This document shows positions 46,917 through 64,000 of a stretch of DNA of 64,000 bases, in pieces. A program made the translations under genes and the position numbers. This DNA comes from Nitrosomonas sp. (GTDB lineage Bacteria; Pseudomonadota; Gammaproteobacteria; Burkholderiales; Nitrosomonadaceae): positions 24,023 to 88,022 of the forward strand of contig NZ_JAHBZY010000005.1 of NCBI RefSeq assembly GCF_019635155.1. Reading direction: 5' to 3'. Positions within the stretch are counted from its first letter, which is position 1, and every line of letters starts with the position of its first letter. Under the pieces are notes generated by a model. It was not told where the DNA came from. It saw only the letters and a list, made by a program, of their open reading frames with translations, and did not search any database.

Positions 46917-47918
46917 TTACCAGCTGTGATCATTACGACGGGTTCGCAATTCGCGAGGTGGTGCAATCGCCGGATCAATTGCAAATTGCTGCTTGCTGAA
47001 ATCGGCGCGTGATCCGGGATCCGGATCAATTTCCTGAATGGATTCGATAACAGCGATACGCGGCGCCAGCCCTGCGGCATTGGCGACTTGAATGGAAAGC
47101 CCCGGCCGCGCATTCAGTTCAATAATCATCGGACCATGATCACGATCCAATACAATGTCGGCTCCCAGATATCCAAGGCCGGTCATTTCATAGCAAGCTG
47201 CCGCCAGTTGCAGCAATTTGTCCCAATGGGGAACCATTAATTCCGAGAAGGTCTTGCGCGTATCCGGATGGAATAATACCGGTTCGCCGTGTTGCACGGC
47301 ATGTAATGCGCTACCGGTTCCCATATCAATTCCGACACCCACGGCACCCTGGTGCAGATTGGCTTTGCCATCGGAAGCGTGCGTGGTGAGCCGCAGCATT
47401 GCCATGATTGGATAACCGCGAAAAACGATAATGCGCAAGTCAGGAATGCCTTCATAACTATAATCAGCGAAAACCGGATCCAACTGAATCAGCGATTCGA
47501 TCATCACCATATCGGGCTTTCCGCCGAGACTATGCAAGCCGCTCAGAATATTCGAAACATGCCGTTCGATGTCATGCAATTGTAATGCATCGCCGCTTGG
47601 CTTGAAGTAGAGATTGTGTTCATGCTCGGTAATAACCAGGATGCCTTTGCCGCCGCTGCCTTTTACCGGCTTAATGACGAACTGGGCATGAGGATCCAAT
47701 ATATCTTTCAGAAGCCTGACATCATGCTGATATTGCACGGTGCCAAGTAATTTCGGTACTGTGATCCCAGCTTGTTGCGCCAGTAATTTGGTTTTTAACT
47801 TGTCGTCGACCAATGGATATAGATGGCGCGGGTTATACCGAGAAATCAGACCAAAATTTCTCTGATTCATACCGATGATGCCGAAGCTCCTAAGTTTCTT
47901 AGCGCTGGCTAGAAGCAT
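46917..47918 (-). CDS. Alpha-L-glutamate ligase-related ATP-grasp protein (RimK-like)
   Basis: ATP-grasp pattern (VIKPVKGSGGKGI, GADIVLD....PMIIELNARPG). The N-terminus SFGIIGMNQRN is typical of the RimK-related family. Confidence 0.82.
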   Translation of the reverse strand: MLLASAKKLRSFGIIGMNQRNFGLISRYNPRHLYPLVDDKLKTKLLAQQAGITVPKLLGTVQYQHDVRLLKDILDPHAQFVIKPVKGSGGKGILVITEHEHNLYFKPSGDALQLHDIERHVSNILSGLHSLGGKPDMVMIESLIQLDPVFADYSYEGIPDLRIIVFRGYPIMAMLRLTTHASDGKANLHQGAVGVGIDMGTGSALHAVQHGEPVLFHPDTRKTFSELMVPHWDKLLQLAAACYEMTGLGYLGADIVLDRDHGPMIIELNARPGLSIQVANAAGLAPRIAVIESIQEIDPDPGSRADFSKQQFAIDPAIAPPRELRTRRNDHSW

Positions 47919-49446
47919 GACGCCGCTCCAGTGCGTGAAAACGATATAGTTCAGATAATCGGTACCCGGTATATTGTCCGAGAATTAAGATAAGCGCCAG
48001 ATTCACCAGCATCAATTCAGGAAAATTGAACGTTAAATACTCGATCGTCCGATTTGTCATGAATAGATAAGCTATCACCGCGGTTAACAAACTGCCGCCA
48101 CCTTGGATAAATACTTCGCGAGGTCCATCTTCTTCCCATAACACGGACATCCGTTCGATGGTCCATGACAGAATGATCATCGGGAAGAAAGTAACGGTCA
48201 TGGCCTGGTCGAGCCCGAGTTTATTGCTGAGTATGCTGATGCTCGCCATAATCGCAATAACGACGATGATGACCGCCGAGATACGCGCGACAAATAACAG
48301 ATTTAAACGCGATAAGTAGGAACGAATCAGAAGCCCGATGCCAACCACGGTCAGAAAGATAAGAATCCCGGTCAGCAAAGTAGTTTGTATTAAGGCAAGT
48401 GCGATCAGTATCGGCATAAAAGTGCCGGAAGTGCGGATGCCGACTAATAGGCGCATGATAACAACGATTAAAGCGCCGATTGGTAACAGTAAAATCATTT
48501 TGAATGCATTTTGCTGTTCGATCGGTAAACTATAAATTGAAAAATCGATGATGCCGGCCTGCTTGTTCATGCTATCGCGAACCACTAGGTTACGGGTTGA
48601 ATGAACATTTTTGATAATTGAAAAAGATATTTGCGAATTTTTACCGCCGACGACATCGAGTAATGATTGGTCGCCACGTTGCCATATCAGAAAATTTTTC
48701 GGTTTGCCGATTTCGCCGGAGTCTTGATTGAAGAGCAACCACTGTCCACCGATGTATACCTCGATAAAATTGACCAGTACTTGTCTGCGGCGTCCATCTT
48801 GCAAATAGAGTCCGCGAACAATGTGCGCGCTGATACCTTCAAGCGCCAGTAAATTGATAATGAGGTGTGTTTTGTATTCTTCGGAGGATTGGTCATTAAG
48901 CAGCAAGCTTTGATTCTGGCCGGGCGCGTTGGAATTGAGGGTGGTAATAAGCTCGCGAGTGAAAGTTTCAGTGTTGGCCGATCGGCTGCGGACTTGATCC
49001 AGAAGCGTGGTCGCTGCTGTTTTAAGTACTTCATCAAACTCCGGTTTTTCCGGTTCGGGTGGAAGATCCGCAGTGCCTTCTTCGGTGATGGAGTCGGTCT
49101 CGTACATACTGAGCCGGTAATAAGCTGTTTGTGAACCGGAAGCCGTTCTTTTGCTCCATTGCGCACGGCGGCCGGTGGGGGAAACTAATTCACTGAATCC
49201 GTAATCAGGGGACGCGAAATCTTCTTCAATAATCGCAATATCCGAAGTTTTGGGTGGCAGGGCGAACGAAACGATAATCGGATCACCGCGCGCAATGAAA
49301 TCGATTTTGGCTTCGATGGTCCAGACCGGTTTTTTGTCATCCGGCGATAATGGAAACCCCAACACGAAGTGCTTATAGAGAATCAAACCGATTCCCAGAC
49401 CGATAAGGAGTATGACGATAAAATATAATCTTAATTTCGTGTGCAT
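47899..49446 (-). CDS. Inactive-transglutaminase-like domain fused to a 7-TM domain (membrane protein of the RimK-related cluster)
   Basis: An N-terminal TM helix, a periplasmic domain of about 300 aa, then 7 hydrophobic helices. The ends overlap both neighbours (20 nt and 1 nt). Confidence 0.68.
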   Translation of the reverse strand: MHTKLRLYFIVILLIGLGIGLILYKHFVLGFPLSPDDKKPVWTIEAKIDFIARGDPIIVSFALPPKTSDIAIIEEDFASPDYGFSELVSPTGRRAQWSKRTASGSQTAYYRLSMYETDSITEEGTADLPPEPEKPEFDEVLKTAATTLLDQVRSRSANTETFTRELITTLNSNAPGQNQSLLLNDQSSEEYKTHLIINLLALEGISAHIVRGLYLQDGRRRQVLVNFIEVYIGGQWLLFNQDSGEIGKPKNFLIWQRGDQSLLDVVGGKNSQISFSIIKNVHSTRNLVVRDSMNKQAGIIDFSIYSLPIEQQNAFKMILLLPIGALIVVIMRLLVGIRTSGTFMPILIALALIQTTLLTGILIFLTVVGIGLLIRSYLSRLNLLFVARISAVIIVVIAIMASISILSNKLGLDQAMTVTFFPMIILSWTIERMSVLWEEDGPREVFIQGGGSLLTAVIAYLFMTNRTIEYLTFNFPELMLVNLALILILGQYTGYRLSELYRFHALERRHASSQR

Positions 49447-50207
49447 TATTTCACATCACCGGTTTCGAGAGTTTCAGTTTTGACGGCAGTAAAATCTTTA
49501 CTAACATCCACAATCGCCAAGTCATTGAGAAAATTCCTGCCGATTAAGACTTGATATTTGAATTTACTGCGATTTTCCAAAGTAAAGTCAATTTGTTCAT
49601 TGATATCAGCAAGAATAACCCGCATTCTGACCACGGGGCGCCGTTGCGCTTCCCTGTCGCCGCGTTCCTTAATGCGGACATGACGGCGCAAGCGTCGGGT
49701 AAGCTCCAGTATTTCACCGGTTTCAGGATGTGTCAGCTTAAAATTCACAAACGGTTTCCCATCTCTCTCGAACTCAACAATATCGATTGCATTCAACGAT
49801 GAAGTTCGCGCACCGGTGTCAATTCTGGCGCTAAATTCCAAACCGGGCGGGTCGAGATACACATTTTCAATACCGCCGATCAGAGTTTTTCCATCCATTT
49901 TTCCAGGAGAATCCGGCTGTGACTGAGTGGTATTGTTGTTATCACAGGAACAGTGGTTGATATTGGTTGAAATTGTATCTTCTTTTGTGCTTGCTAATTT
50001 ATCAGACTGACTCTTTTCCAAGAATTTTCTGGTTTCAACCAGCTCCGAAAATAGATTAACCAGCTCCGATTCCCGATCCCGGATCATCGCTTCCCTCTCC
50101 GATAGTTGATCGTCCCGCGTATTGCAAGCACTGAGTATTGCAATAGCGAGAATGGCGAATAAATGGTTCAGACAATTTCTGGTGATAGATGAATGCGGGA
50201 TGCTCAT
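49446..50207 (-). CDS. Retropepsin-like aspartic endopeptidase (formerly called the 'putative ATP-dependent zinc protease' family; RimB-like) with a lipoprotein signal and coiled coil
   Basis: Lipobox ILSAC, then a coiled-coil region. The C-terminal domain carries the RIDTGARTSSL (D-T-G) motif. Confidence 0.72.
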   Translation of the reverse strand: MSIPHSSITRNCLNHLFAILAIAILSACNTRDDQLSEREAMIRDRESELVNLFSELVETRKFLEKSQSDKLASTKEDTISTNINHCSCDNNNTTQSQPDSPGKMDGKTLIGGIENVYLDPPGLEFSARIDTGARTSSLNAIDIVEFERDGKPFVNFKLTHPETGEILELTRRLRRHVRIKERGDREAQRRPVVRMRVILADINEQIDFTLENRSKFKYQVLIGRNFLNDLAIVDVSKDFTAVKTETLETGDVK

Positions 50208-54438: not shown

Positions 54439-55611
54439 ATGAGTCATCAGCTTTTCAAACTTATTCGAACCACAATTTTTCTTGGTGGAATTTCTGCAGT
54501 TTCAGTACCGGCTGCTGCAGCGACAGATTGGTCTATTGTAGGTTTAGGAACGCTTAGCGGCACATACAGTGTCGCTCGAGCCATCAATGACTACGGGCAG
54601 GTGGTGGGTAACGGTAATGGTGTCGATCTCGCATTTATTACCGGTGCAAACGGCGTCGGTATGCACTATTTGGATACTCTGGGTGGTACTAGAAGCTTTG
54701 CGTTTGATATTAATAATTCCGGACAAGTGGCCGGCTATTCTTCGACAAGTTCCGGCTATCTTCACGCCTTTATTACGGGTGCAAACGGGGTAGGTATGAT
54801 GGATCTGGGAACACTGGGAGGGGATTACAGCATTGCATACGGTATCAACGACCAGGGGCAGGTGGTCGGCATCTCTTCCACCGAGGGTAATGCTGCTTAT
54901 CATGCGTTTATTACAGGTCCCGGCGGCGTGGGAATGACCGATTTAGGAACATTGGGTGGAGACTATAGTGTTGCTTACGGTATCAATAATTCTGGAGAAG
55001 TGGTGGGTGCTTCCACCATTGGAGATGGTGCCACGCAACACGCTTTTATATCGGGCGCCCATGGTACGGGAATGGTCGATCTCAGTACGCTGAACGGGAC
55101 GACCGATAGTTTGGCCTGGGATATTAATAACTCGGGGCAGGTTGTGGGGTTTTCCGGGTTTTACGATGACTTCTTCGGTTATTATTCGGTAAAAGCTTTT
55201 ATTACCGATGCTGGTGGCGCCAGTATGGACGGCTTGGAAATTTCGCAGGATAGCCGAGCGAATGCCATCAACGATTTGGGGCAGGTAGTTGGTGGCATTA
55301 ATCAGTACTGTAGCGATTGTACTCCCAGTTCATTTCTCTACAGCGATGGAACAGTGACCGATCTCTCGTTACTTGAGCCGGTTGTTGCGGCAGGATGGAG
55401 CGAATTGACTGCCGTCGGCATTAATAATCATGGACAAATCATTGGTTGGGGGCAATTGGCCGGATCGCCAGGAGGTGGTTCCCGGGCTTTCTTGCTATCC
55501 CCGGTTGTTGCAGTACCGGAGCCTGAAACTTACATGATGTTATTGGCAGGTTTGGGGTTGCTAAGTTTTGCATGGCGGCGCGAGGGAAAGCAATCACCCT
55601 TCCAGCGATAA
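54439..55611 (+). CDS. HAF-family extracellular repeat protein with a PEP-CTERM anchor
   Basis: A signal peptide; about 7 tandem units of about 45 aa (HAFITGANGVGM.DLGTLGG.YS.A.GIN..GQVVG); C-terminus VPEPETYMMLLAGLGLLSFAWRR. Confidence 0.85.
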   Translation: MSHQLFKLIRTTIFLGGISAVSVPAAAATDWSIVGLGTLSGTYSVARAINDYGQVVGNGNGVDLAFITGANGVGMHYLDTLGGTRSFAFDINNSGQVAGYSSTSSGYLHAFITGANGVGMMDLGTLGGDYSIAYGINDQGQVVGISSTEGNAAYHAFITGPGGVGMTDLGTLGGDYSVAYGINNSGEVVGASTIGDGATQHAFISGAHGTGMVDLSTLNGTTDSLAWDINNSGQVVGFSGFYDDFFGYYSVKAFITDAGGASMDGLEISQDSRANAINDLGQVVGGINQYCSDCTPSSFLYSDGTVTDLSLLEPVVAAGWSELTAVGINNHGQIIGWGQLAGSPGGGSRAFLLSPVVAVPEPETYMMLLAGLGLLSFAWRREGKQSPFQR

Positions 55612-55710: not shown

Positions 55711-56361
55711 CTATCGATCCGGCTGATTGCCTATCTCATGCCTGATTGTGGACAAAGCCTGAATACCCGCATTGAAAGTTTTGATTTCCGAACGATCAAG
55801 TAGCACGCACGGTTTTTGTGTGTATCTGCAAAAGCGTTTGACCATCAGGAATGCTTCGTGATTGACGCAATCGACCGGGCAAATGATCATATCGGCCATC
55901 TCCAGCAACAGTGGCAAACGATCCAACGAATCATTGGCATCGCCGTGAAATGCTAAAAAATGGCCTCCGCAAGTGGCAACTAATCGCTCATAGTACGAAT
56001 ATAGTTTGATACGACCGCCAACGCATAATACGGAACGGTTTTTCAAATGGGCAGTGTCACAATAATGATCCCACACATCGTTTGAGTTGCCGGCAATCGC
56101 TGTATTAATTTTCGAGGATGCTTTGATCAATGGCGCCCAGCCGGTAAAAGCGGAGGTCTTATGTGCGCTTGAATCATCATCAATATTGGTTATTAATACC
56201 TGGCCTAAACCATCGTACCATTGCTTGAGCAGTGTAAACAGCCGCGTAACGCTACCCAGTCGATAAGATAAAAAACTATTTGCATGCGTTGAATTTGAAG
56301 CATGATAATGAGGAGCGGTGCACAGCGAAGCGGCAATAACCGATTTATTGATGAATTTCAT
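55711..56361 (-). CDS. DUF2325-type protein (C-terminal domain); function unknown
   Basis: The C-terminal block VLCVGGR....Y......GG.F..H.G........L......AD.IICPVDCVNH.A matches my recollection of DUF2325. It lies downstream of bfr on the same strand. Confidence 0.55.
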   Translation of the reverse strand: MKFINKSVIAASLCTAPHYHASNSTHANSFLSYRLGSVTRLFTLLKQWYDGLGQVLITNIDDDSSAHKTSAFTGWAPLIKASSKINTAIAGNSNDVWDHYCDTAHLKNRSVLCVGGRIKLYSYYERLVATCGGHFLAFHGDANDSLDRLPLLLEMADMIICPVDCVNHEAFLMVKRFCRYTQKPCVLLDRSEIKTFNAGIQALSTIRHEIGNQPDR

Positions 56362-56485
56362 TTTCGAGTCTCCTACAAATCATCAGCAACTAAAAAAAGC
56401 GGCTGGCTGACCCGGGAGAAGCAGGCTGGCTGGCTAAATACGCCGCTGGATAAGGAAGAGGAATTCCAGCGGCGATGGCAAAAAA

Positions 56486-56950
56486 CTACATCTGGCTTTG
56501 CAGCCAATTATGGATACCGACTTTTTCCATGACGCTCAGTTGGGTTTCCAACCAGTCGATATGTTCTTCGGTATCCTCTAGAATCTGTTCAAAAATTTCC
56601 CTTGATACAAAATCTTGTGCGGATTCACAAGCGGCTATTGCAGCGAGCAACGTGTCCCGCGAGATATACTCAAGCTTCAAGTCGCATGCGACACACTCTT
56701 CCGCTGTTTCCCCAATCATCAATTTACCCAAATCTTGCAGATTGGGAAGGCCTTCTAATAGAAGGATTCTTTCGATCAAACTATCCGCATGTTTCATCTC
56801 TTCGCAGGATTCTTTAAATTCATGCTCTCCAAGGCTGCTAAATCCCCAATTTTTATACATGCGAGCGTGGAGGAAATATTGATTGATGGCGGTTAATTCA
56901 TGTTGCAATTGCAGATTCAACCAGCGAATAATTTCTACATTACCTTTCAT
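56486..56950 (-). CDS. bfr: Bacterioferritin
   Basis: [37 protein letters not shown] is near-collinear with E. coli Bfr, including the haem-ligand Met and the ferroxidase Glu/His. GAGGAG lies 7 nt upstream of the ATG at 56950. Confidence 0.95.
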
Positions 56951-57170
56951 TTCTATCTCCTCAGACAAGTCTTTTGCATATCAATGGCTGTATCGGAAAA
57001 TATATCGCGCAGGTATTGTATTTTAGCTTTCTCAATCCAATTGCTTGTATTGTGATGAGCAGCATACCTTGCATGAATCTTTATCATGCACTCGTAAATC
57101 TGACTTTACGAAGAGCGATACCACTAACAACTTACAAGCATAAATATACATGATATGTGCTTTTAATCCA

Positions 57171-57356
57171 CTATTTGTTCAGAATCAGCTTGCCATTTCG
57201 TGTGCGGCGCAGTGCATATTGTTCACCCCTGTGCACAATGATCACAACATCGCCATGTTTGAATAACGTATCGCTATCGATGAGTTTGTTTATTTCCACT
57301 ATTCCGGATTGCGGTAAGCTTCTGGCGCTGATCTGTTGAGAACTTAAAGTATTCAT
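57171..57356 (-). CDS. hemP: Hemin-uptake protein HemP/HmuP family
   Basis: 61 aa. The C-terminal signature LFKHGDVVIIVHRGEQYALRRTRNGKLILNK is typical of HemP. Confidence 0.85.
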   Translation of the reverse strand: MNTLSSQQISARSLPQSGIVEINKLIDSDTLFKHGDVVIIVHRGEQYALRRTRNGKLILNK

Positions 57357-57441: not shown

Positions 57442-57814
57442 AGTGAGATTACCATCATGATTAATAGCGATGGTATGGTGCTAGTGGTTGAGACCACTGT
57501 CGCTAATTGCCATGACAGTAAATCGCTTCTGGACTTGTTGGATAAAGCCAAAATCCAGTCAGCAGGAATCTATGTTTATGCCGTCAAATCCTATATCCTA
57601 TAGCAGCCAGAAACACCGCGATGCTTTGAAATCGTGCGGCATTAAAAACTGCATCCAGGATAAGGCTGCGAAAAATAATCCATTGATGCTACGAAAATTA
57701 CTGCTTAACAGTCTAATCACAAAGGCCTGCTATGTCGTTGAACGAACCTCCGTCAGCCAGGCACACATTAGTTCGATGTCAAGATACTGCGTCACAGGCG
57801 GCTTACCTCATTGA
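57442..57814 (+). mobile_element. Internal fragment of an IS5-family (DDE) transposase gene: a frameshifted pseudogene truncated at both ends
   Basis: Frame 1 (57442-57603) reads INSDGMVLVVETTVANCHDSKSLLDLLDKAKIQSAGIYVYAVKSYIL*. Frame 2 continues SQKHRDALKSCGIKNCIQDKAAKNNPLMLRKLLLNSLITKACYVVERT.. These resemble the IS5 C-terminal blocks (ADKGY, IQDKA.KN.PL, R..VE). I found no terminal inverted repeats. Confidence 0.7.
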
Positions 57815-57815
57815 A

Positions 57816-59363
57816 TTAAGGACAAGCAGGAGTGCCATCCGCTCGCAATTGCGCTGTGGCATGCCCCGATGCTGGAAACGGATTTAATCGACCGACTACT
57901 GGTGCGCCTTTCTCAGGTCGATCTAAGGTAGTGAGAGGGCCACTATCGTTTGTCAAAAAACAAAAATTTTCGAATGGTACAGGCACAGGATTCTTGTACT
58001 GACCAAAACGAGTGTTTTCAGGATATATATATTCGCTGACCGGTGCAGTATATTGACCAGAATTGAGTCTACCGACTTTAAAAGTGTCATGATTTTCGAT
58101 CCTAATACGCACTTCACGCGTAATAGGCAAGAAATTGGCTTTTGCCGGCAAAGTTACTCTTATGCGTCCTACTTGAGCCGTAGGACTTGGGGTAAGCGTG
58201 GTTAACGGTCGTTCATTTTCCACCCATTTATTTGTTGTGACATCAAACTGATAATTCAATACGAAAACCTTTACTCTTCGGGCTGGATCGGTAGTGAAAC
58301 CAACCAAACGAAATCGTGACGTCTCTTCCTGATCAATACCAGGAAATGGTTGACCTAAAGTACCAGAAATGGCTTCTTCGATAAAAACGTAGGCTGGATC
58401 TTCGTTAGGAGAGGTATAGATACCTAGTTTGGCGTGAATTGCATGAGCTGCGATGAACCAATTCCCGCTATTAGGTGTTTCTTCCGTTAGCATTCCGGAA
58501 TAGGTTATGAAATCTCCTTCCTGGAGTGGCATCTTTTTTTGGGGATCGCACTCTTTGTGCGGTATGGCGATAGGATCTATCGCAGCAACTTTACCACAAG
58601 TAAAACGACGAATAGTTAATGGAACCGGTCGATTGGATATAGGGCATAAATCATCTTTTTTAACCGATGGATTAGAGCGGGGAATACACATAGGAAAACC
58701 CGTTTCGGCAACAACCGGCGCATTGCCAGCATCGCTGGAAAAACGCTCATCCATAACATCGGGATTTCCTGGGAATTTATCTTTATTCTGATTCCCATAT
58801 TCTCCCTTCGGGTCATTGATACGCACGCGAGCAGTTGCAACGCCTGTGCCTGCTTCAGGGCCTACAAGCAATTCACCTTTGTCGTAGTCGATTGATTGAA
58901 TAAATCCCTCACCGACATTTAATCCTCCCTGGGATATGCGGACTACCCCTGCAATATATTCACCATTAACAATGTTACCGATAATCTCAGCTTCAAAAGA
59001 AACTGCTGGCGTGATAACAGGCGGGGATGCAGTTAAATTACGATCTTTGAGTGCTAAACCACTTGGCTTAGTTGCAGGCCTGATGGCCCCTCCCGTATCG
59101 AATGGATGAGATCCTCGGAATAGGTCGTTAAGCGTTAGGTACTGTCCAGGCATTGTAATTAGTAAATTTTTCGGGAGGGTAATGCGCAATCCATTGACGA
59201 CAATAAAACCCTTAGATAAAGGATCGTTAAGGTCGTCAACATCCAGTTCCTGAATATGGCCCAGCACACTAAAAGATGATGTAGGCACCTGCGCGAATGC
59301 CCAACCACTTGCGCAGTATATGATTGCAAACATTACAGATTGTAGCCAATGTTCCTTCTTCAT
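57816..59363 (-). CDS. Secreted 515-aa protein of unknown family (last gene of the operon)
   Basis: Signal peptide MKKEHWLQSVMFAIIYCASGWAFAQ. AAGGAGG lies 6 nt upstream of the ATG. Several spaced Cys residues follow the signal peptide. No motif recognised. Confidence 0.6.
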   Translation of the reverse strand: MKKEHWLQSVMFAIIYCASGWAFAQVPTSSFSVLGHIQELDVDDLNDPLSKGFIVVNGLRITLPKNLLITMPGQYLTLNDLFRGSHPFDTGGAIRPATKPSGLALKDRNLTASPPVITPAVSFEAEIIGNIVNGEYIAGVVRISQGGLNVGEGFIQSIDYDKGELLVGPEAGTGVATARVRINDPKGEYGNQNKDKFPGNPDVMDERFSSDAGNAPVVAETGFPMCIPRSNPSVKKDDLCPISNRPVPLTIRRFTCGKVAAIDPIAIPHKECDPQKKMPLQEGDFITYSGMLTEETPNSGNWFIAAHAIHAKLGIYTSPNEDPAYVFIEEAISGTLGQPFPGIDQEETSRFRLVGFTTDPARRVKVFVLNYQFDVTTNKWVENERPLTTLTPSPTAQVGRIRVTLPAKANFLPITREVRIRIENHDTFKVGRLNSGQYTAPVSEYIYPENTRFGQYKNPVPVPFENFCFLTNDSGPLTTLDRPEKGAPVVGRLNPFPASGHATAQLRADGTPACP

Positions 59364-59375
59364 TCTTAATCCTCC

Positions 59376-60791
59376 TTATTGCCAAATAAAACCCTCAGCC
59401 AGAGCGTGCCGGGCTTTAGGTGTGAATCGAACAGATAAACCAGGGATAGGTTCGAATTCCTGAGGATTATCTAGTACCGAAATTAATCGATCCTGGTCCA
59501 GGATTCGCCCAGAGCGTGCAATAGCTTCGGCTATCAATCCGATTGCAGCGTGACCCAGTGCGGTCCATAAATCCGTTGCTGCCAATACATGTTGAGGTAC
59601 CGGAAAAACTACGACTCGATTTGCGTGGTTAGCTTGAAGTGACGTACCTGAGATGCTTGCTAGTGTAGCCACGCATAGATGCAAAGTGTCTATGTCTAGC
59701 TGTGATCGTATACTCTCAATGTCGTCAGAAGGAAGTAAAAAGATCAATTTATCAGCCAAACGGGAATCAATCGTTTTCTTCAACTGCTGTTCAACCTGCG
59801 ATACATGAACCACTCGTAATGGTGGCTTATTATTTACCGAAGTATTCGAGAAAGCTCCACTAACCGGATTTATTGCTGGTAAATCCTTTTCGTTCACATA
59901 CCATATTTCACTGCCAAGATCTGAAGTACAGCGTTCCTGCAAAAGCGCTAGGGCCGATACAATTTGTTGTTGTACACTCGGCAGCAGATAAGTCGTCAAT
60001 CGATGGTGCTGAGTCGCAATCGGCATACCGATGGCACCGACGCTGGGAGTGTTGCTTGCAGTAAGAGCTTGTATCAAGCCATCGGATGGCTCAGCAAGCC
60101 AACTACCCACCAAGGCAAATATATCTTGCGATTGAATCAAATCGAGTGTGGCGGCATCTAGCCCATCGGTAGTTGCATCTACCGATTTTAATTGCAAGAC
60201 ACGCCCAAAAATCCCGCCTGTTGCATTAATTGCATTAATCCGTTGTTGCATTCCTTGCAGAATGGAATATCCTGCTGCTGCTTGCGTGCCGGTAAGTGGT
60301 AAAACGGTACCTAGAATAATTGTATCGGCAGACACCCCACGTACAGGAACTGCCTCAGTTCCAATTATCCGCAGATATTCAATCAGTGCATCACGTTCTG
60401 AATTGGTCAACATGAATCGCGGCATGCTTTCAGTCAGCAAAGTGTCATTTGTCCGTGCGATTCCTTTCTCAATTGCACTAAGGATTTGCTGTGCCGAATC
60501 ATAACCTGGAAGATTTGAACGTTTATTCGTTAATGAGTGCCATTGAACGGATGGTGCAATAATGCCGCCTTCCACACGTCCCTCTCCATGTGATCCATGA
60601 CAAGCTGAGCAATGTGCATCGCTCAACGGTATTGTTACACCCGCAACCTGAGGAGCATGAGTGAAAGGGTGTTTTCCTTCATAAAGTGCGCGCCCAAGCT
60701 TGATTTCATCAGTAATGTTTGCTGCTAATGTGACAGAACAAGCTATAAGCAAAGTACTTAAGATACCTAAGCGCTGGATTTGAGGTTTCAT
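59376..60791 (-). CDS. Mono-haem cytochrome c domain fused to a type-1 periplasmic binding protein (LivK/Amide-receptor-like) domain
   Basis: A signal peptide, CSACH haem-binding motif and a distal MP (ESMPRF). From about residue 150 it shows a PBP1 pattern (IILGTVLPLTGTQAAAGYSILQGMQQRINAINATGGIFGRVLQLKSVD). The ATG at 60791 shares its A with the SCO1 stop (TGATG); GTG at 60794 is the alternative. Confidence 0.72.
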   Translation of the reverse strand: MKPQIQRLGILSTLLIACSVTLAANITDEIKLGRALYEGKHPFTHAPQVAGVTIPLSDAHCSACHGSHGEGRVEGGIIAPSVQWHSLTNKRSNLPGYDSAQQILSAIEKGIARTNDTLLTESMPRFMLTNSERDALIEYLRIIGTEAVPVRGVSADTIILGTVLPLTGTQAAAGYSILQGMQQRINAINATGGIFGRVLQLKSVDATTDGLDAATLDLIQSQDIFALVGSWLAEPSDGLIQALTASNTPSVGAIGMPIATQHHRLTTYLLPSVQQQIVSALALLQERCTSDLGSEIWYVNEKDLPAINPVSGAFSNTSVNNKPPLRVVHVSQVEQQLKKTIDSRLADKLIFLLPSDDIESIRSQLDIDTLHLCVATLASISGTSLQANHANRVVVFPVPQHVLAATDLWTALGHAAIGLIAEAIARSGRILDQDRLISVLDNPQEFEPIPGLSVRFTPKARHALAEGFIWQ

Positions 60792-61369
60792 CACTGCGCT
60801 ACCTCTCGGACTAATCTTGATAGTACATCAGGACCATTGAGAGCTGCGACACGCATCCAGCGTTTGTTTGGTTGATAACCGATCCAAATCATTCCTGTAT
60901 GAGAATCAGCCGCATAACCACGTTCACCAAATGCACGCATGATACGACGCACCTGTTGCGGTGTGCCTGTCAGAAAAACCCAGCCGTTATTAATCCCTGT
61001 TTTTACGTCGAAACGTTGAGCATAATTACGCAGTCGGGAGGGATTGTCAGTTAATGGATCAACTGTGATCGAAATGAAGAGTATTTTGTCTTTGACATCG
61101 GTAACATTCACAGCGTCCATTGTTGCACGAAGAATAGCTGTTTGCGGAGAACAGCTGCTGGTACAACTAGTAAACATAAAATTTACCAGCACTATATGTT
61201 CGTGAATGAGCTCATCCAATCGGACACTGTGGTTATCTTGATCTATAAGTTCTACTTTGGGTATAACAGGGGGTTCACTAACCCAAGTCGAAGCTATGGC
61301 AGCATTCTTTGTAAGCAGTACGAATACAATGAAGCACAGTAACGAATGATATTTAATCAGTTTGGGCAT
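60791..61369 (-). CDS. SCO1/SenC-family copper chaperone (thioredoxin fold)
   Basis: N-terminal membrane anchor/signal; VLVNFMFTSCTSSCSP (the CxxxC copper site); ISITVDPLTD; a downstream conserved His in DSHTGMIWIG. I prefer the ATG at 61369 (signal-like N-terminus) over the ORF-track 61531. Confidence 0.8.
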   Translation of the reverse strand: MPKLIKYHSLLCFIVFVLLTKNAAIASTWVSEPPVIPKVELIDQDNHSVRLDELIHEHIVLVNFMFTSCTSSCSPQTAILRATMDAVNVTDVKDKILFISITVDPLTDNPSRLRNYAQRFDVKTGINNGWVFLTGTPQQVRRIMRAFGERGYAADSHTGMIWIGYQPNKRWMRVAALNGPDVLSRLVREVAQ

Positions 61370-63278
61370 GCTGTAACCCCTGAGTCGTTTCAACTTCAGT
61401 TTCAATATATAAAGATCCGATTCGACCTGAGGTAAAATCGAGCGTGAGTGAAGGTACGCTAACCAGGAGCTCATAGCGCCCAGAATGAGGTAGCTTTGCG
61501 GATGCTTCATAAACACCAGCTTCGTGTTCATGTAAAGTTATTCGGGTTTGCCAGCCGGTTGTGCGATGAAAAACCAGTAGAACACCATCCGCAATGCCTG
61601 CAATGGTTTGTTGCCGGGCATCCCGTAACGCAATTCTGAAATTGCGTTGTGTTTTATCTGAAGAATCTGAGCTATCCAGTAAAACTGCAAGTACCGAGTA
61701 TTCGTGTTCCTCCGGTTTGGAATCCGGTACATTTACTACGATCGGTAAGCAGGCTGTAATTGAGGGTGAAAGGGTCTTCACTATGACTTCGTATGTACCA
61801 CTGGTCGAGAATTTAACCGGTGCAACGTATTCACCTGCTCCGCGCTCGGTTAATCCAGAGTCCATGATCATGACGGCGCGCGCCTTGCGGCGATAATTGC
61901 TAAAATTGCCTGAGGGCGCCATCAATCCTTCAGTATAGCGATAAAGCATACCGTCGGCTGCATTAGCTACGATGACGCCATTACCTTCTGGTACCGGTAC
62001 AATCATTGGCGCAACGCCAATATCTTCACTGGTAGCGTTGGGAGCTAACCGTCCCATTGGGACTTGCGCCACATTTAATCGTCCTTGTGCAGCTTCACGC
62101 AAATTGATTACTGAGACATTGTTTGAGCCTTGTCCGCGTACATAAGCATACCCGGGCGATAAAACAATTTGATCCGGTCCAGTAGTAATTTGCGCAGTTG
62201 CCTTTACAACACCCATTGCAAGATCAATCAATGTAATCGTGCTACTTTTACTATTTGTGACCAGTGCGTTACGTCCATTATTAAATAATGTCAGCGCTTG
62301 CCCTGCTTCTTCAAGTTGGATACGCGTTGTAATTTTTCCAGTCGAAGGATCGATTAAAAACAAATCATTGCTATTAGCTGTAATAACCGCTAATCGCTGT
62401 GCCAGGGTACTCCATGTTGCAGCAAGAGGAGTTCCGGGAACTTTGATTTCCTGTAAATGTTTTTTTGTAACCGCGTTGATGACGGACACCGTGTCAGCTT
62501 GGGGATTGATTGCAAACAACCATTGTTGATCATCTGATGTCGCTAAGATATGTAAACCCGCCCCTACAGGAATACGTTCGATTTTTGTTTGTGTTTCGCT
62601 TTGATTGGCAGTTAAATCGATTGCAGCAATTTGTGCGCGGCCATCCAACCCCACCCATAAAATCTGCCGTTCTTCATCCAACAGCATTCGAGTGGGATGA
62701 TCATCGGTATCAAAAGCAATGGTTTGAATCAGTTTTCGGCTTACTGTATCAATCACAGCAATAGTATTTTGATTGCGCAGTGTTACATAAATGCGCTGTA
62801 GTTTAGGTGAGTATGTCCAATCAAAACCTTCACCCGGTAATGAGACGATTGACTCGAGTTTGGCATTATTCAGAGATACAAACGGATTGATAAATGCTAC
62901 TGTCTGATCATGGTTTAAAGTAACGATCCGATAAGTATTGAGATCTATATCCGCACGCAGGCTCATGTTTCCTGACATCAATTGCTTAGCCTTGAATTCG
63001 CACGACAGCTCTCCGTTATCGTAGAGATTTCGTTTGGCAACGATCCATGATAAGGGTTTTATATCCCTATAGGCGCGGCCGCTAATTGAATCTTTCACTG
63101 TAATGGAAGCCAACCCTAATCCTGGCTGGTTTGGCTCAGCCGCATTTTGCAGAGAAAAATCAATTGTTATACCGCCTGCTTCAGTTTTTGCTTGTAGCGA
63201 CTCGATGGCAAACACAGTAGTTGCAGAATGCAAAACACATACAAGTACAGCGGTCAGAGTCGATTTCACTGAGCTCAT
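61353..63278 (-). CDS. Secreted YVTN-type beta-propeller protein flanked by FixH/YtkA-like Ig-fold domains
   Basis: A signal peptide. Repeated blades: YVTLRNQNTIAVIDTVSRKL, LFAINPQADTVSVINAVTKK, LAVITANSNDLFLIDPSTGK, ALVTNSKSSTITLIDLAMG, YAYVRGQGSNNVSVINL. Two C-terminal motifs, GEYVAPVKFSTSGTYEVIVK and GVYEASAKLPHSGRYELLVS. Confidence 0.7.
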   Translation of the reverse strand: MSSVKSTLTAVLVCVLHSATTVFAIESLQAKTEAGGITIDFSLQNAAEPNQPGLGLASITVKDSISGRAYRDIKPLSWIVAKRNLYDNGELSCEFKAKQLMSGNMSLRADIDLNTYRIVTLNHDQTVAFINPFVSLNNAKLESIVSLPGEGFDWTYSPKLQRIYVTLRNQNTIAVIDTVSRKLIQTIAFDTDDHPTRMLLDEERQILWVGLDGRAQIAAIDLTANQSETQTKIERIPVGAGLHILATSDDQQWLFAINPQADTVSVINAVTKKHLQEIKVPGTPLAATWSTLAQRLAVITANSNDLFLIDPSTGKITTRIQLEEAGQALTLFNNGRNALVTNSKSSTITLIDLAMGVVKATAQITTGPDQIVLSPGYAYVRGQGSNNVSVINLREAAQGRLNVAQVPMGRLAPNATSEDIGVAPMIVPVPEGNGVIVANAADGMLYRYTEGLMAPSGNFSNYRRKARAVMIMDSGLTERGAGEYVAPVKFSTSGTYEVIVKTLSPSITACLPIVVNVPDSKPEEHEYSVLAVLLDSSDSSDKTQRNFRIALRDARQQTIAGIADGVLLVFHRTTGWQTRITLHEHEAGVYEASAKLPHSGRYELLVSVPSLTLDFTSGRIGSLYIETEVETTQGLQHAQTD

Positions 63279-63856
63279 TGTGGGATATAACGAAGGGTGT
63301 TGATTGCTACGTGCGTTGCTGGATCAGATAAATAGGGTGCAGTTTCCGAATGTGTAAAATATGCATCAAAGGTTACCGTGTCAATCAGTTTTCCTGCAGG
63401 AGCTTGGCCACCTAAGAAAGGAGCTGTACCACGTACCTTATTGGAAATGCCACTCTTAATTAATCCTTTCTGACCTGAAAAATTCGCGCGCAGTTGTCCC
63501 CAGTATTCTTCCCCAATTTTTCTTGCATCAACAGAAATGTGCGCGCCTACCGCTAGAACAGCGGGTTTGAAAGTAAGAATAATTACTCTATGCTCGTTTC
63601 TTGTGGTTCGCAGCAATGGATCGCCATCAAAGAAATTATTATCAAGTAGAGTCCCGTTCCCACAATTATTTACCTGGATTTCATTATGATTTGTTATATC
63701 AACAGTAATTGTTTGATGATCATAAATGTAATTCATGCTAACAGTATCCAAAAGATCTCTACGATTAATTATAACGTTCGGATGTGCTGTCCAATTGACT
63801 GTGTTGGCTTGACTGAAGCCAGAAAACTCTAGTTGTGCCAATTCATCATTTGACAT
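63275..63856 (-). CDS. 193-aa protein of unknown family, no signal peptide
   Basis: A strong AAGGAG 7 nt upstream of the ATG at 63856. Its stop overlaps the next start as ATGA. Beta-rich sequence; no motif recognised. Confidence 0.6.
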   Translation of the reverse strand: MSNDELAQLEFSGFSQANTVNWTAHPNVIINRRDLLDTVSMNYIYDHQTITVDITNHNEIQVNNCGNGTLLDNNFFDGDPLLRTTRNEHRVIILTFKPAVLAVGAHISVDARKIGEEYWGQLRANFSGQKGLIKSGISNKVRGTAPFLGGQAPAGKLIDTVTFDAYFTHSETAPYLSDPATHVAINTLRYIPQ

Positions 63857-63867
63857 TTTGTATCTCC

Positions 63868-64000
63868 TTATTTATGTTCTTGTGCTGTTTTAGGTACAAC
63901 ACGCAGTAATCCCCAGATACCGCCATCAAACAAGAAACTGGCCTGGCTGCGATATAAATAATCCATGGGTATTTCTCTCTCACCACCCGCTTTAAACACC
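63868..64000 (-). CDS. 3' end of an upstream operon gene (C-terminal 43 codons only), unknown family
   Basis: An open frame reaches the window edge, reading ..VFKAGGEREIPMDYLYRSQASFLFDGGIWGLLRVVPKTAQEHK*. Its stop TAA (63868-63870) is embedded in the next gene's Shine-Dalgarno sequence. Confidence 0.45.
   Translation of the reverse strand, partial: VFKAGGEREIPMDYLYRSQASFLFDGGIWGLLRVVPKTAQEHK

Follow-up and report, generated by a model that had tools for sequence, protein, structure and literature searches.

A six-gene operon of the MnxG multicopper oxidase family in Nitrosomonas with two conserved orphan protein families

A group of minus-strand genes at positions 57816 to 64000 of a 64,000-nucleotide (nt) stretch of a Nitrosomonas sp. 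contig (NZ_JAHBZY010000005.1, here called the window) was analysed computationally, and it was found to be the distal part of a complete six-gene operon, the first gene of which crosses the window edge (Table 1). The operon almost certainly belongs to the family of MnxG, the giant multicopper oxidase of manganese-oxidizing bacteria. We consider that the best explanation, and a likely one, is an MnxG-family operon in which the oxidase is encoded together with dedicated maturation factors and probably serves Mn(II) oxidation; Mn(II) itself, taken as the substrate, is modestly favoured by analogy with the two relatives that have been studied, the MnxG proteins of Bacillus and Pseudomonas putida. 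A preliminary description of these genes, made from the sequence of the window, had proposed an undescribed copper/haem redox system. Instead, profile searches placed the cluster in an already characterized pathway, and the combination of oxidase, propeller, SCO1 and cytochrome fusion corresponds to the published mnxG architecture.

The operon was followed beyond position 64000, where the preliminary description had expected it to continue, on the parent contig, a 109-kb public contig that extends the window and encodes the exact 515- and 193-amino acid (aa) proteins. The product of the first gene (L002:3801-9989 on the parent contig) is 2062 aa in length. The 43-aa fragment of it that lies in the window matched positions 1862-1893 of the 1894 positions of the NCBIfam model NF041487 (manganese-oxidizing multicopper oxidase MnxG), which is the extreme C-terminus, with an expect value (E) of 2.2e-5. 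The full-length protein scored 832.5 bits (E 6e-250) against the same model in 7 stretches, and the solved MnxG chain, PDB 9bxa_A, matched it at E 5.7e-95, with 9 aligned stretches across residues 49-1498. On the basis of this homology along the chain to the MnxG proteins of Bacillus and P. putida GB-1, the prediction that the first gene encodes an MnxG-family multicopper oxidase is secure. The cuproprotein partner that a dedicated SCO1 had been taken to imply is thus found in the cut first gene. The edge fragment had also been listed, with the 193-aa and 515-aa proteins, among three products that match no family; this held for the two complete proteins but not for the fragment.

The oxidase was searched for a test set of copper ligand motifs consisting of HxxHxH, HCHxxxHxxxxM and two further HxH pairs (trinuclear cluster), and all were present: HVFHLH at residues 516-521, HCHLYPHFAQGM at 570-581, HIH at 927-929 and HDH at 1065-1067. 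These motifs can provide a type-1 site and eight histidines, in four pairs, for a trinuclear cluster, with an assignment of the individual His pairs to copper sites that we infer from the sequence. The blocks KETHVFHLHAHQW, HCHLYPHFAQGMW, HIHLVKFDV and HDH..SHQQHG are nearly identical to Bacillus MnxG at the copper ligands, and the consensus blocks in the alignment with 9bxa_A are KETHVFHxHxHQW, HCHLYPxFxxGMW, HIHxVKFDV and HDH..SHQQHG. The copper motifs were kept in 35-38 of 42 relatives, and most of the misses were truncated or broken copies of the oxidase gene. The N-termini of the window protein and its relatives are Sec-type in appearance, without a twin-arginine motif.

Two further features were observed in and near the oxidase gene. 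The C-terminal sequence of the oxidase, ...FLFDGGIWGLLRV (window 63871-63999, minus strand), echoes the sequence ...FAQGMWELWRV that follows the HCH motif of domain 2 (residues 579-587); the Cys and His ligands are missing from this C-terminal echo, and the final cupredoxin domain has the look of a degenerate copy without copper. Beyond window position 64000, some 90 nt upstream of the ATG of the oxidase gene (L002 3801), an otherwise AT-rich leader contains a tandem 22-nt direct repeat, CAGTGTGAGTT[T/C]TATCACTAAA, in two copies with one mismatch (L002 3667-3710); this repeat is a candidate operator through which the operon might be regulated.

The conservation of the operon was evaluated by scanning one genome per species with an alignment of homologues of the 515-aa protein. 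This yielded 47 loci, located in Burkholderiales, Nitrosomonadales-like and Hydrogenophilales metagenome-assembled genomes (MAGs), Pseudomonas, Pseudoxanthomonas, many Alphaproteobacteria and three Nitrospira. Gene order was then read from tblastn searches with all six proteins, for which 40 loci, covering Beta-, Gamma- and Alphaproteobacteria and Nitrospira, had enough upstream DNA to be informative. It was found that both order and strand were fixed in all 40: oxidase, 193-aa protein, propeller, SCO1, cytochrome fusion and 515-aa protein. Therefore, the operon arrangement is far beyond chance, and co-occurrence of these genes in other genomes, a question raised in the preliminary description, is borne out, an absence of co-localization being contradicted. 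Across the loci, identity to the window proteins was 47-59% for the oxidase and 39-60% for the 515-aa protein, 27-43% for the propeller, 29-43% for SCO1 and 27-39% for the cytochrome fusion. The 515-aa gene was always terminal in the operon, and no conserved seventh gene was found downstream of it in 42 loci.

All six families were also present on the Roseomonas gilardii plasmid pRo-1, on which RefSeq names the SCO and cytochrome genes only, the oxidase, the 193-aa homologue and the propeller being entered as 'hypothetical protein'. The 515-aa homologue on this plasmid (L050 18823-20315) is annotated as two overlapping coding sequences of 124 and 383 aa, and this split suggests a frameshift or pseudogene in a strain of clinical source.

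The three accessory proteins with recognizable domains were evaluated by comparing bit scores with the curated cut-offs of Pfam and NCBIfam. The 192-aa protein scored 65.9 bits against a cut-off of 22.8 for SCO1-SenC (PF02630) and has the CTSSC and DSH motifs, in agreement with its first assignment as an SCO1/SenC protein with CTSSC and a downstream His; CxxxCP was found in 43 of 44 homologues. Both parts of the 471-aa protein, described from the start as a CSACH cytochrome c joined to a type-1 periplasmic binding fold, were above their cut-offs: 27.9 versus 21.3 bits for Cytochrom_C (PF00034), and 55.7 versus 31.7 bits for Peripla_BP_6 (PF13458), with the latter match covering the first lobe only (profile positions 2-127 of 343). 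The CSACH motif is present in the fusion, and CxxCH occurs in 44 of 46 homologues. The 641-aa protein matched the YVTN repeat model TIGR02276 at 72.4 versus 27.85 bits in 3 stretches and YtkA (PF13115) at 30.0 versus 25.9 bits, and YNCE and Cytochrom_D1 were also over their cut-offs. Of the YVTN propeller with FixH/YtkA-like immunoglobulin (Ig) domains that had been proposed, the YVTN and YtkA parts therefore stand, but the FixH model was sub-threshold on this protein (16.6 versus 23 bits). A comparison of homologues revealed no conserved metal-binding histidine cluster in either the propeller or the 515-aa protein.

The signal sequence of the cytochrome fusion (window 60720-60791, minus strand) ends in LLIAC as judged by eye. 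LLIAC is compatible with a lipobox, and the fusion, instead of being soluble in the periplasm, may be a lipoprotein.

The 193-aa and 515-aa proteins are members of real, conserved families. In all 40 informative loci, the gap of about 600 nt between the oxidase and propeller genes is filled by an open reading frame (ORF) of about 185-250 aa (starts approximate) without a signal peptide. A hidden Markov model built from these 40 gap ORFs scored the 193-aa protein of the window at 106 bits (E 9e-29), and the gap ORFs therefore represent a sixth conserved family. This family is small and fast-evolving, comprising 83 representative clusters in 1.84 billion proteins, and word-indexed searches for homologues returned 1 and then 7 proteins, so that the depth of the alignment for structure prediction was limited. 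The 193-aa protein had no supported Pfam family and no NCBIfam match; a match to DUF1521 (E 7e-4, below the cut-off) was rejected, as it was seen in 1 of 25 family members. Its AlphaFold2 model is a beta-sandwich of low confidence, with a predicted local distance difference test (pLDDT) score of 54.7, and a Foldseek search of this model against the PDB gave generic beta-sandwich and jelly-roll domains at E >= 6e-3, none of them significant.

The 515-aa protein has at least 478 homologues, all named 'hypothetical' and none with Pfam domains, and six cysteines are invariant in the family. SurA_N was not found on the 515-aa protein in a Pfam scan, and the protein likewise matched no NCBIfam model. 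The AlphaFold2 model is all-beta and of usable quality (pLDDT 76.6; predicted template modelling score 0.77). Because Foldseek returned nothing from the PDB at E <= 1e-3, the best being partial matches to oligonucleotide/oligosaccharide-binding (OB) fold or Ig-like domains with a template modelling score of <= 0.15, we have not given the protein a fold. In searches with the profiles of the 193-aa and 515-aa families against PDB sequences, only noise was obtained (ribosomal protein L18, E 0.7; TagV/YvhJ, E 0.06). The structural and profile comparisons of the kind suggested in the preliminary description thus found no PDB match for either protein, in keeping with its reading of both as orphans.

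More distant operons were found on alphaproteobacterial plasmids, namely Sphingobium xenophagum pSH1, Paracoccus yeei pTT13-4, Methylobacterium sp. DM1 pLVM1 and a plasmid of Indioceanicola profundi. Their MnxG-like oxidases are only 31-36% identical. The Sphingobium, Methylobacterium and Paracoccus operons share the oxidase, propeller, SCO and a c-type cytochrome with the window, whereas in Indioceanicola the oxidase, propeller and two SCOs were detected and the cytochrome was not. In RefSeq/GenBank, the oxidase and everything except any SCO or cytochrome are hypothetical in these operons. Among the oxidases tested against NF041487, that of Indioceanicola, which has two SCOs as in GB-1, had the highest score (1409 bits), followed by the window (832 bits), Roseomonas (758 bits), Sphingobium (667 bits) and Paracoccus (521 bits). 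The 193-aa and 515-aa families were absent from all four distant plasmid operons. Because both are present in operons of the window type and absent from these, the two families mark out, on the sequences compared, a single subclade within a broader superfamily whose members share a core of four genes. The two SCO genes on the Indioceanicola plasmid are tandem paralogues (L052 14836-16330), as has been reported for P. putida GB-1, in a record that is essentially unannotated.

In the mechanism that we propose, the apo-oxidase would be exported unfolded via Sec, and the membrane-anchored SCO1 would supply Cu(I) in the periplasm and so load the oxidase. The propeller-Ig protein, the cytochrome fusion and the secreted 515-aa protein would be partners in maturation, scaffolding, redox poising or localization. 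The mature oxidase would then turn its metal substrate, most probably Mn(II), to a Mn(III/IV) oxide, with the electrons passing to O2. What the single accessory proteins do is conjecture. Our best guess for the 193-aa beta-sandwich protein, which has no signal peptide, is that it acts in the cytoplasm on the giant oxidase precursor, for example as its dedicated chaperone, and the 515-aa protein may stand in for the SurA-like protein of GB-1 as a partner in the periplasm or at the surface. A role for the 193-aa protein as a chaperone in export of the oxidase by twin-arginine translocation was considered and is unsupported, the oxidase N-termini having no twin-arginine motif. Cytochrome c maturation is reported to be required for Mn oxidation in Pseudomonas (de Vrind 1998), which agrees with the conserved cytochrome fusion having a functional role.

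Several points weigh against Mn(II) oxidation by an oxidase with these maturation factors. The equivalog cut-off of NF041487 is a whole-protein score of 3100 bits, and the window oxidase, at 832.5 bits, is therefore a homologue and not an equivalog of the Pseudomonas enzyme and belongs to a different clade from that tested enzyme. The Bacillus and Pseudomonas MnxG proteins are themselves only 25% identical (bioRxiv 10.1101/2022.11.10.515945), and a preprint on manganese-removing sand filters cautions that homology is a poor predictor of function for such oxidases (bioRxiv 10.1101/2024.12.25.630300). The GB-1 operon, by its published annotation, lacks the 193-aa and 515-aa families. In the literature searched, no member of the subclade had been tested for Mn(II) oxidation, and a demonstrated role was found for no accessory gene of any mnxG operon.

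The low NF041487 score and the published caution about homology would suit the same MnxG-family operon acting on a substrate other than Mn, such as Fe(II), Cu(I) or a phenolic or other organic compound, the enzyme then being a metal-detoxifying or laccase-like oxidase. Iron-related genes (hemP, bacterioferritin) lie next door, though the remnant of an insertion sequence (IS) intervenes. However, other genomes do not keep such iron genes beside the operon, the copper-site motif blocks agree almost completely with those of Bacillus MnxG, and both studied members of the family, from Bacillus and P. putida, oxidize Mn(II) despite their low mutual identity. We therefore regard a different substrate as rather unlikely and prefer Mn(II).

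An energy-conserving variant, in which electrons would travel in part via the cytochrome fusion to the respiratory chain and serve as an auxiliary donor for the lithotrophs Nitrosomonas and Nitrospira, seems improbable. A mono-haem cytochrome c is kept across the operons of the superfamily (none was detected in Indioceanicola), there are chemolithotrophs among the carriers, and it has been speculated that electrons from Mn(II) reach the respiratory chain through c-type cytochromes (PMC13631088). Most carriers, however, are ordinary heterotrophs, and a quinol or cytochrome oxidase partner is absent from the operon. For the reduction of a typical cytochrome c, the Mn(III)/Mn(II) potential is also unfavourable. 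Furthermore, because the oxidase holds the full set of motifs for four-electron reduction of O2, it should be able to reduce O2 itself, so that the electron outlet that the preliminary description had seen in the cytochrome would not be required. That the genes instead form a self-standing, undescribed periplasmic copper/haem oxidoreductase, which would act on a small molecule held by the binding-protein fold and be unrelated to known pathways, is highly improbable: two of the six products lack both a named family and a recognizable fold, and the operon encodes no transporter to partner the binding-protein fold, but the cuproprotein is an MnxG-family oxidase, the accessory set matches the published mnxG operon (PMC11409713), and the accessory proteins show no sign of a separate catalytic centre.

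The layout of the operon in the window is given in Table 1. The minus strand was read directly and all five gene junctions were confirmed, in agreement with the earlier reading of a translationally coupled periplasmic operon. The TAA of the cut first gene (63870-63868) forms part of TAAGGAG and is followed, 11 nt further on, by the ATG of the 193-aa gene at 63856, and an ATGA overlap at 63278-63275 joins the 193-aa and 641-aa ORFs. The stop codon of the 641-aa ORF (61355-61353) lies beyond the SCO1 ATG at 61369, giving a 17-nt overlap, and TGATG at 60793-60789 is common to the SCO1 stop and the start of the cytochrome gene. When genes were called independently on the parent contig, the same starts were used, those of the 192-aa SCO1 at 61369 and of the 471-aa cytochrome protein included. 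The cytochrome gene ends in TAA, and the sequence TAAGGAGG, with a 12-nt spacer, precedes the ATG of the 515-aa gene at 59363. The length of this spacer was correct as first described, but the AAGGAGG is not wholly within it, since it shares two bases with the cytochrome stop codon. Inspection by eye revealed hydrophobic N-termini on the 641-aa, SCO1, cytochrome fusion and 515-aa products and none on the 193-aa product, as expected from the earlier count of four signal or anchor sequences among the five complete products. In a consensus scan, sigma-70-like promoter sites were fewer than in shuffled sequence, and terminator-like hairpins were slightly more numerous than in the shuffles, none of them convincing. 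The GC content is about 45%, and the best named homologues are proteins of a Nitrosomonas sp. MAG, with 80-89% identity.

Table 1. Genes of the MnxG-family operon and the adjoining transposase remnant, in window coordinates.
Feature	Position	Strand	Remark
MnxG-family oxidase gene, 3' end (last 43 codons and TAA)	63868..64000	-	remainder beyond the window edge
193-aa protein, unnamed family, without N-terminal signal peptide	63275..63856	-	always between oxidase and propeller in the subclade
641-aa secreted YVTN-type seven-bladed beta-propeller with C-terminal YtkA/FixH-like Ig domain	61353..63278	-	
192-aa membrane-anchored SCO1/SenC copper chaperone, CTSSC and downstream DSH histidine	60791..61369	-	
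471-aa fusion of mono-haem cytochrome c (CSACH) and type-1 periplasmic binding protein fold	59376..60791	-	
515-aa secreted all-beta protein, unnamed family	57816..59363	-	last gene of the operon
IS5-family transposase gene remnant	57457..57814	+	abuts the operon end; weak DDE_Tnp_1 and tblastn matches

The IS5 scar that had been noted beside the operon is weakly supported, by a DDE_Tnp_1 match at E 0.0023 on a 48-aa ORF and by tblastn, in which 49 aa aligned with an annotated IS5 family transposase at 43% identity (E 4e-4). Truncation of the operon by this remnant was considered and rejected, because no seventh gene is conserved downstream in the 42 loci. Beyond the remnant, on the operon strand, lies the iron-related trio (window 55711-57356, minus strand), which encodes a 61-aa HemP, a 160-aa bacterioferritin-like ferritin and a 216-aa DUF2325 protein. 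Farther away, the product encoded at 54439-55611 on the plus strand is a secreted repeat protein that carries DUF3466 and, at its C-terminus, a PEP-CTERM sorting signal, which implies an exosortase system in the organism. According to Pfam annotation of the parent contig, the genes clustered at 46917-50207 (minus strand) encode an ATP-grasp protein (RimK/YheCD-like) together with a 7TM transglutaminase-like and a RimB-like protein.

Mn(II) oxidation by bacteria shapes the cycling of metals and carbon, and drinking-water filters make use of it; only a handful of Mn oxidases have been tested so far, and the accessory genes of mnxG operons are without a known role. The architecture of the mnxG operon is already known, as are MnxG homologues in Nitrospira and Nitrosomonas, which have been reported in genomes from Mn-removing sand filters (bioRxiv 10.1101/2024.12.25.630300; PMC12070406). 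The fixed six-gene subtype, its two orphan families and the breadth of the four-gene core appear not to be described in the literature searched. Our analysis did not reveal a new kind of redox system; it indicates that a Nitrosomonas genome carries a complete MnxG-type operon, that a core made up of oxidase, propeller, SCO and cytochrome c is kept throughout the MnxG-like superfamily (except that no cytochrome was detected in Indioceanicola), and that in one widespread subclade two conserved orphan families are added to this core. The oxidase, propeller, 193-aa and 515-aa proteins are "hypothetical" in reference annotation, and the operon offers testable candidates for the maturation machinery of a giant multicopper oxidase. 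The six-gene signature would also be a cleaner genomic marker than oxidase homology alone for the prediction of Mn oxidation in metagenomes.

A bolder proposal, which we put forward tentatively and think unlikely to hold in full, is that both orphans are obligatory, unrecognized partners of a distinct MnxG-like clade, one as an export or assembly chaperone and the other as a periplasmic or outer-surface subunit, and that the module gives nitrifiers and many Burkholderiales a real Mn(II)-oxidizing capacity. If this were true, it would explain the suspected part of Nitrosomonas and Nitrospira in manganese removal by sand filters.

Of the known systems with which the operon can be compared, the mofA-mofB-mofC genes of Leptothrix discophora SS-1, as described in a figure legend of PMC8218464, resemble it in combining a large putative Mn-oxidizing multicopper oxidase with a cytochrome c domain protein; by that description mofB is of the Mip/FKBP type, and the propeller and the 193-aa and 515-aa families are not included. 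The Mnx complex of Bacillus sp. PL-12 (MnxG, MnxE and MnxF; PDB 9bxa; PMC5622069) has a catalytic subunit that is homologous to the window oxidase, as shown by the match to 9bxa_A, and small accessory proteins that are encoded in the operon of MnxG itself. In contrast to the 2062-aa window oxidase, Bacillus MnxG is 1227 aa in length; its partners MnxE and MnxF are subunits of about 12 kDa encoded upstream, and the 193-aa family profile matches no PDB chain. A propeller, SCO or cytochrome gene has not been reported for the Bacillus operon.

The closest likeness is to the P. putida GB-1 mnxG operon, for which six genes have been published: mnxG, a YVTN/lactonase-family propeller, two consecutive SCO1/SenC genes, a substrate-binding protein with cytochrome c, and a SurA-N protein (PMC11409713 Table 4; PMC8218464 Fig. 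2c). The equivalent of the cytochrome fusion is annotated there as an ABC substrate-binding protein with a cytochrome c domain (PMC11409713). The window operon differs in that it has a single SCO, that a 193-aa gene whose product has no signal peptide is inserted between oxidase and propeller, and that it ends in the 515-aa orphan and not in a SurA-N-domain protein; in the subclade, the two orphan families stand in for the second SCO and the SurA-like protein of GB-1. Both operons have six genes and begin with a giant MnxG-family oxidase, followed on the same strand by a propeller, an SCO protein and a fusion of cytochrome c with a binding protein, so that four of the six gene types match, the accessory proteins being compared by published annotation only. 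Because the oxidase, propeller, SCO and cytochrome fusion genes are shared with the GB-1 mnxG operon, the cluster in the window is identified as an MnxG-type operon.

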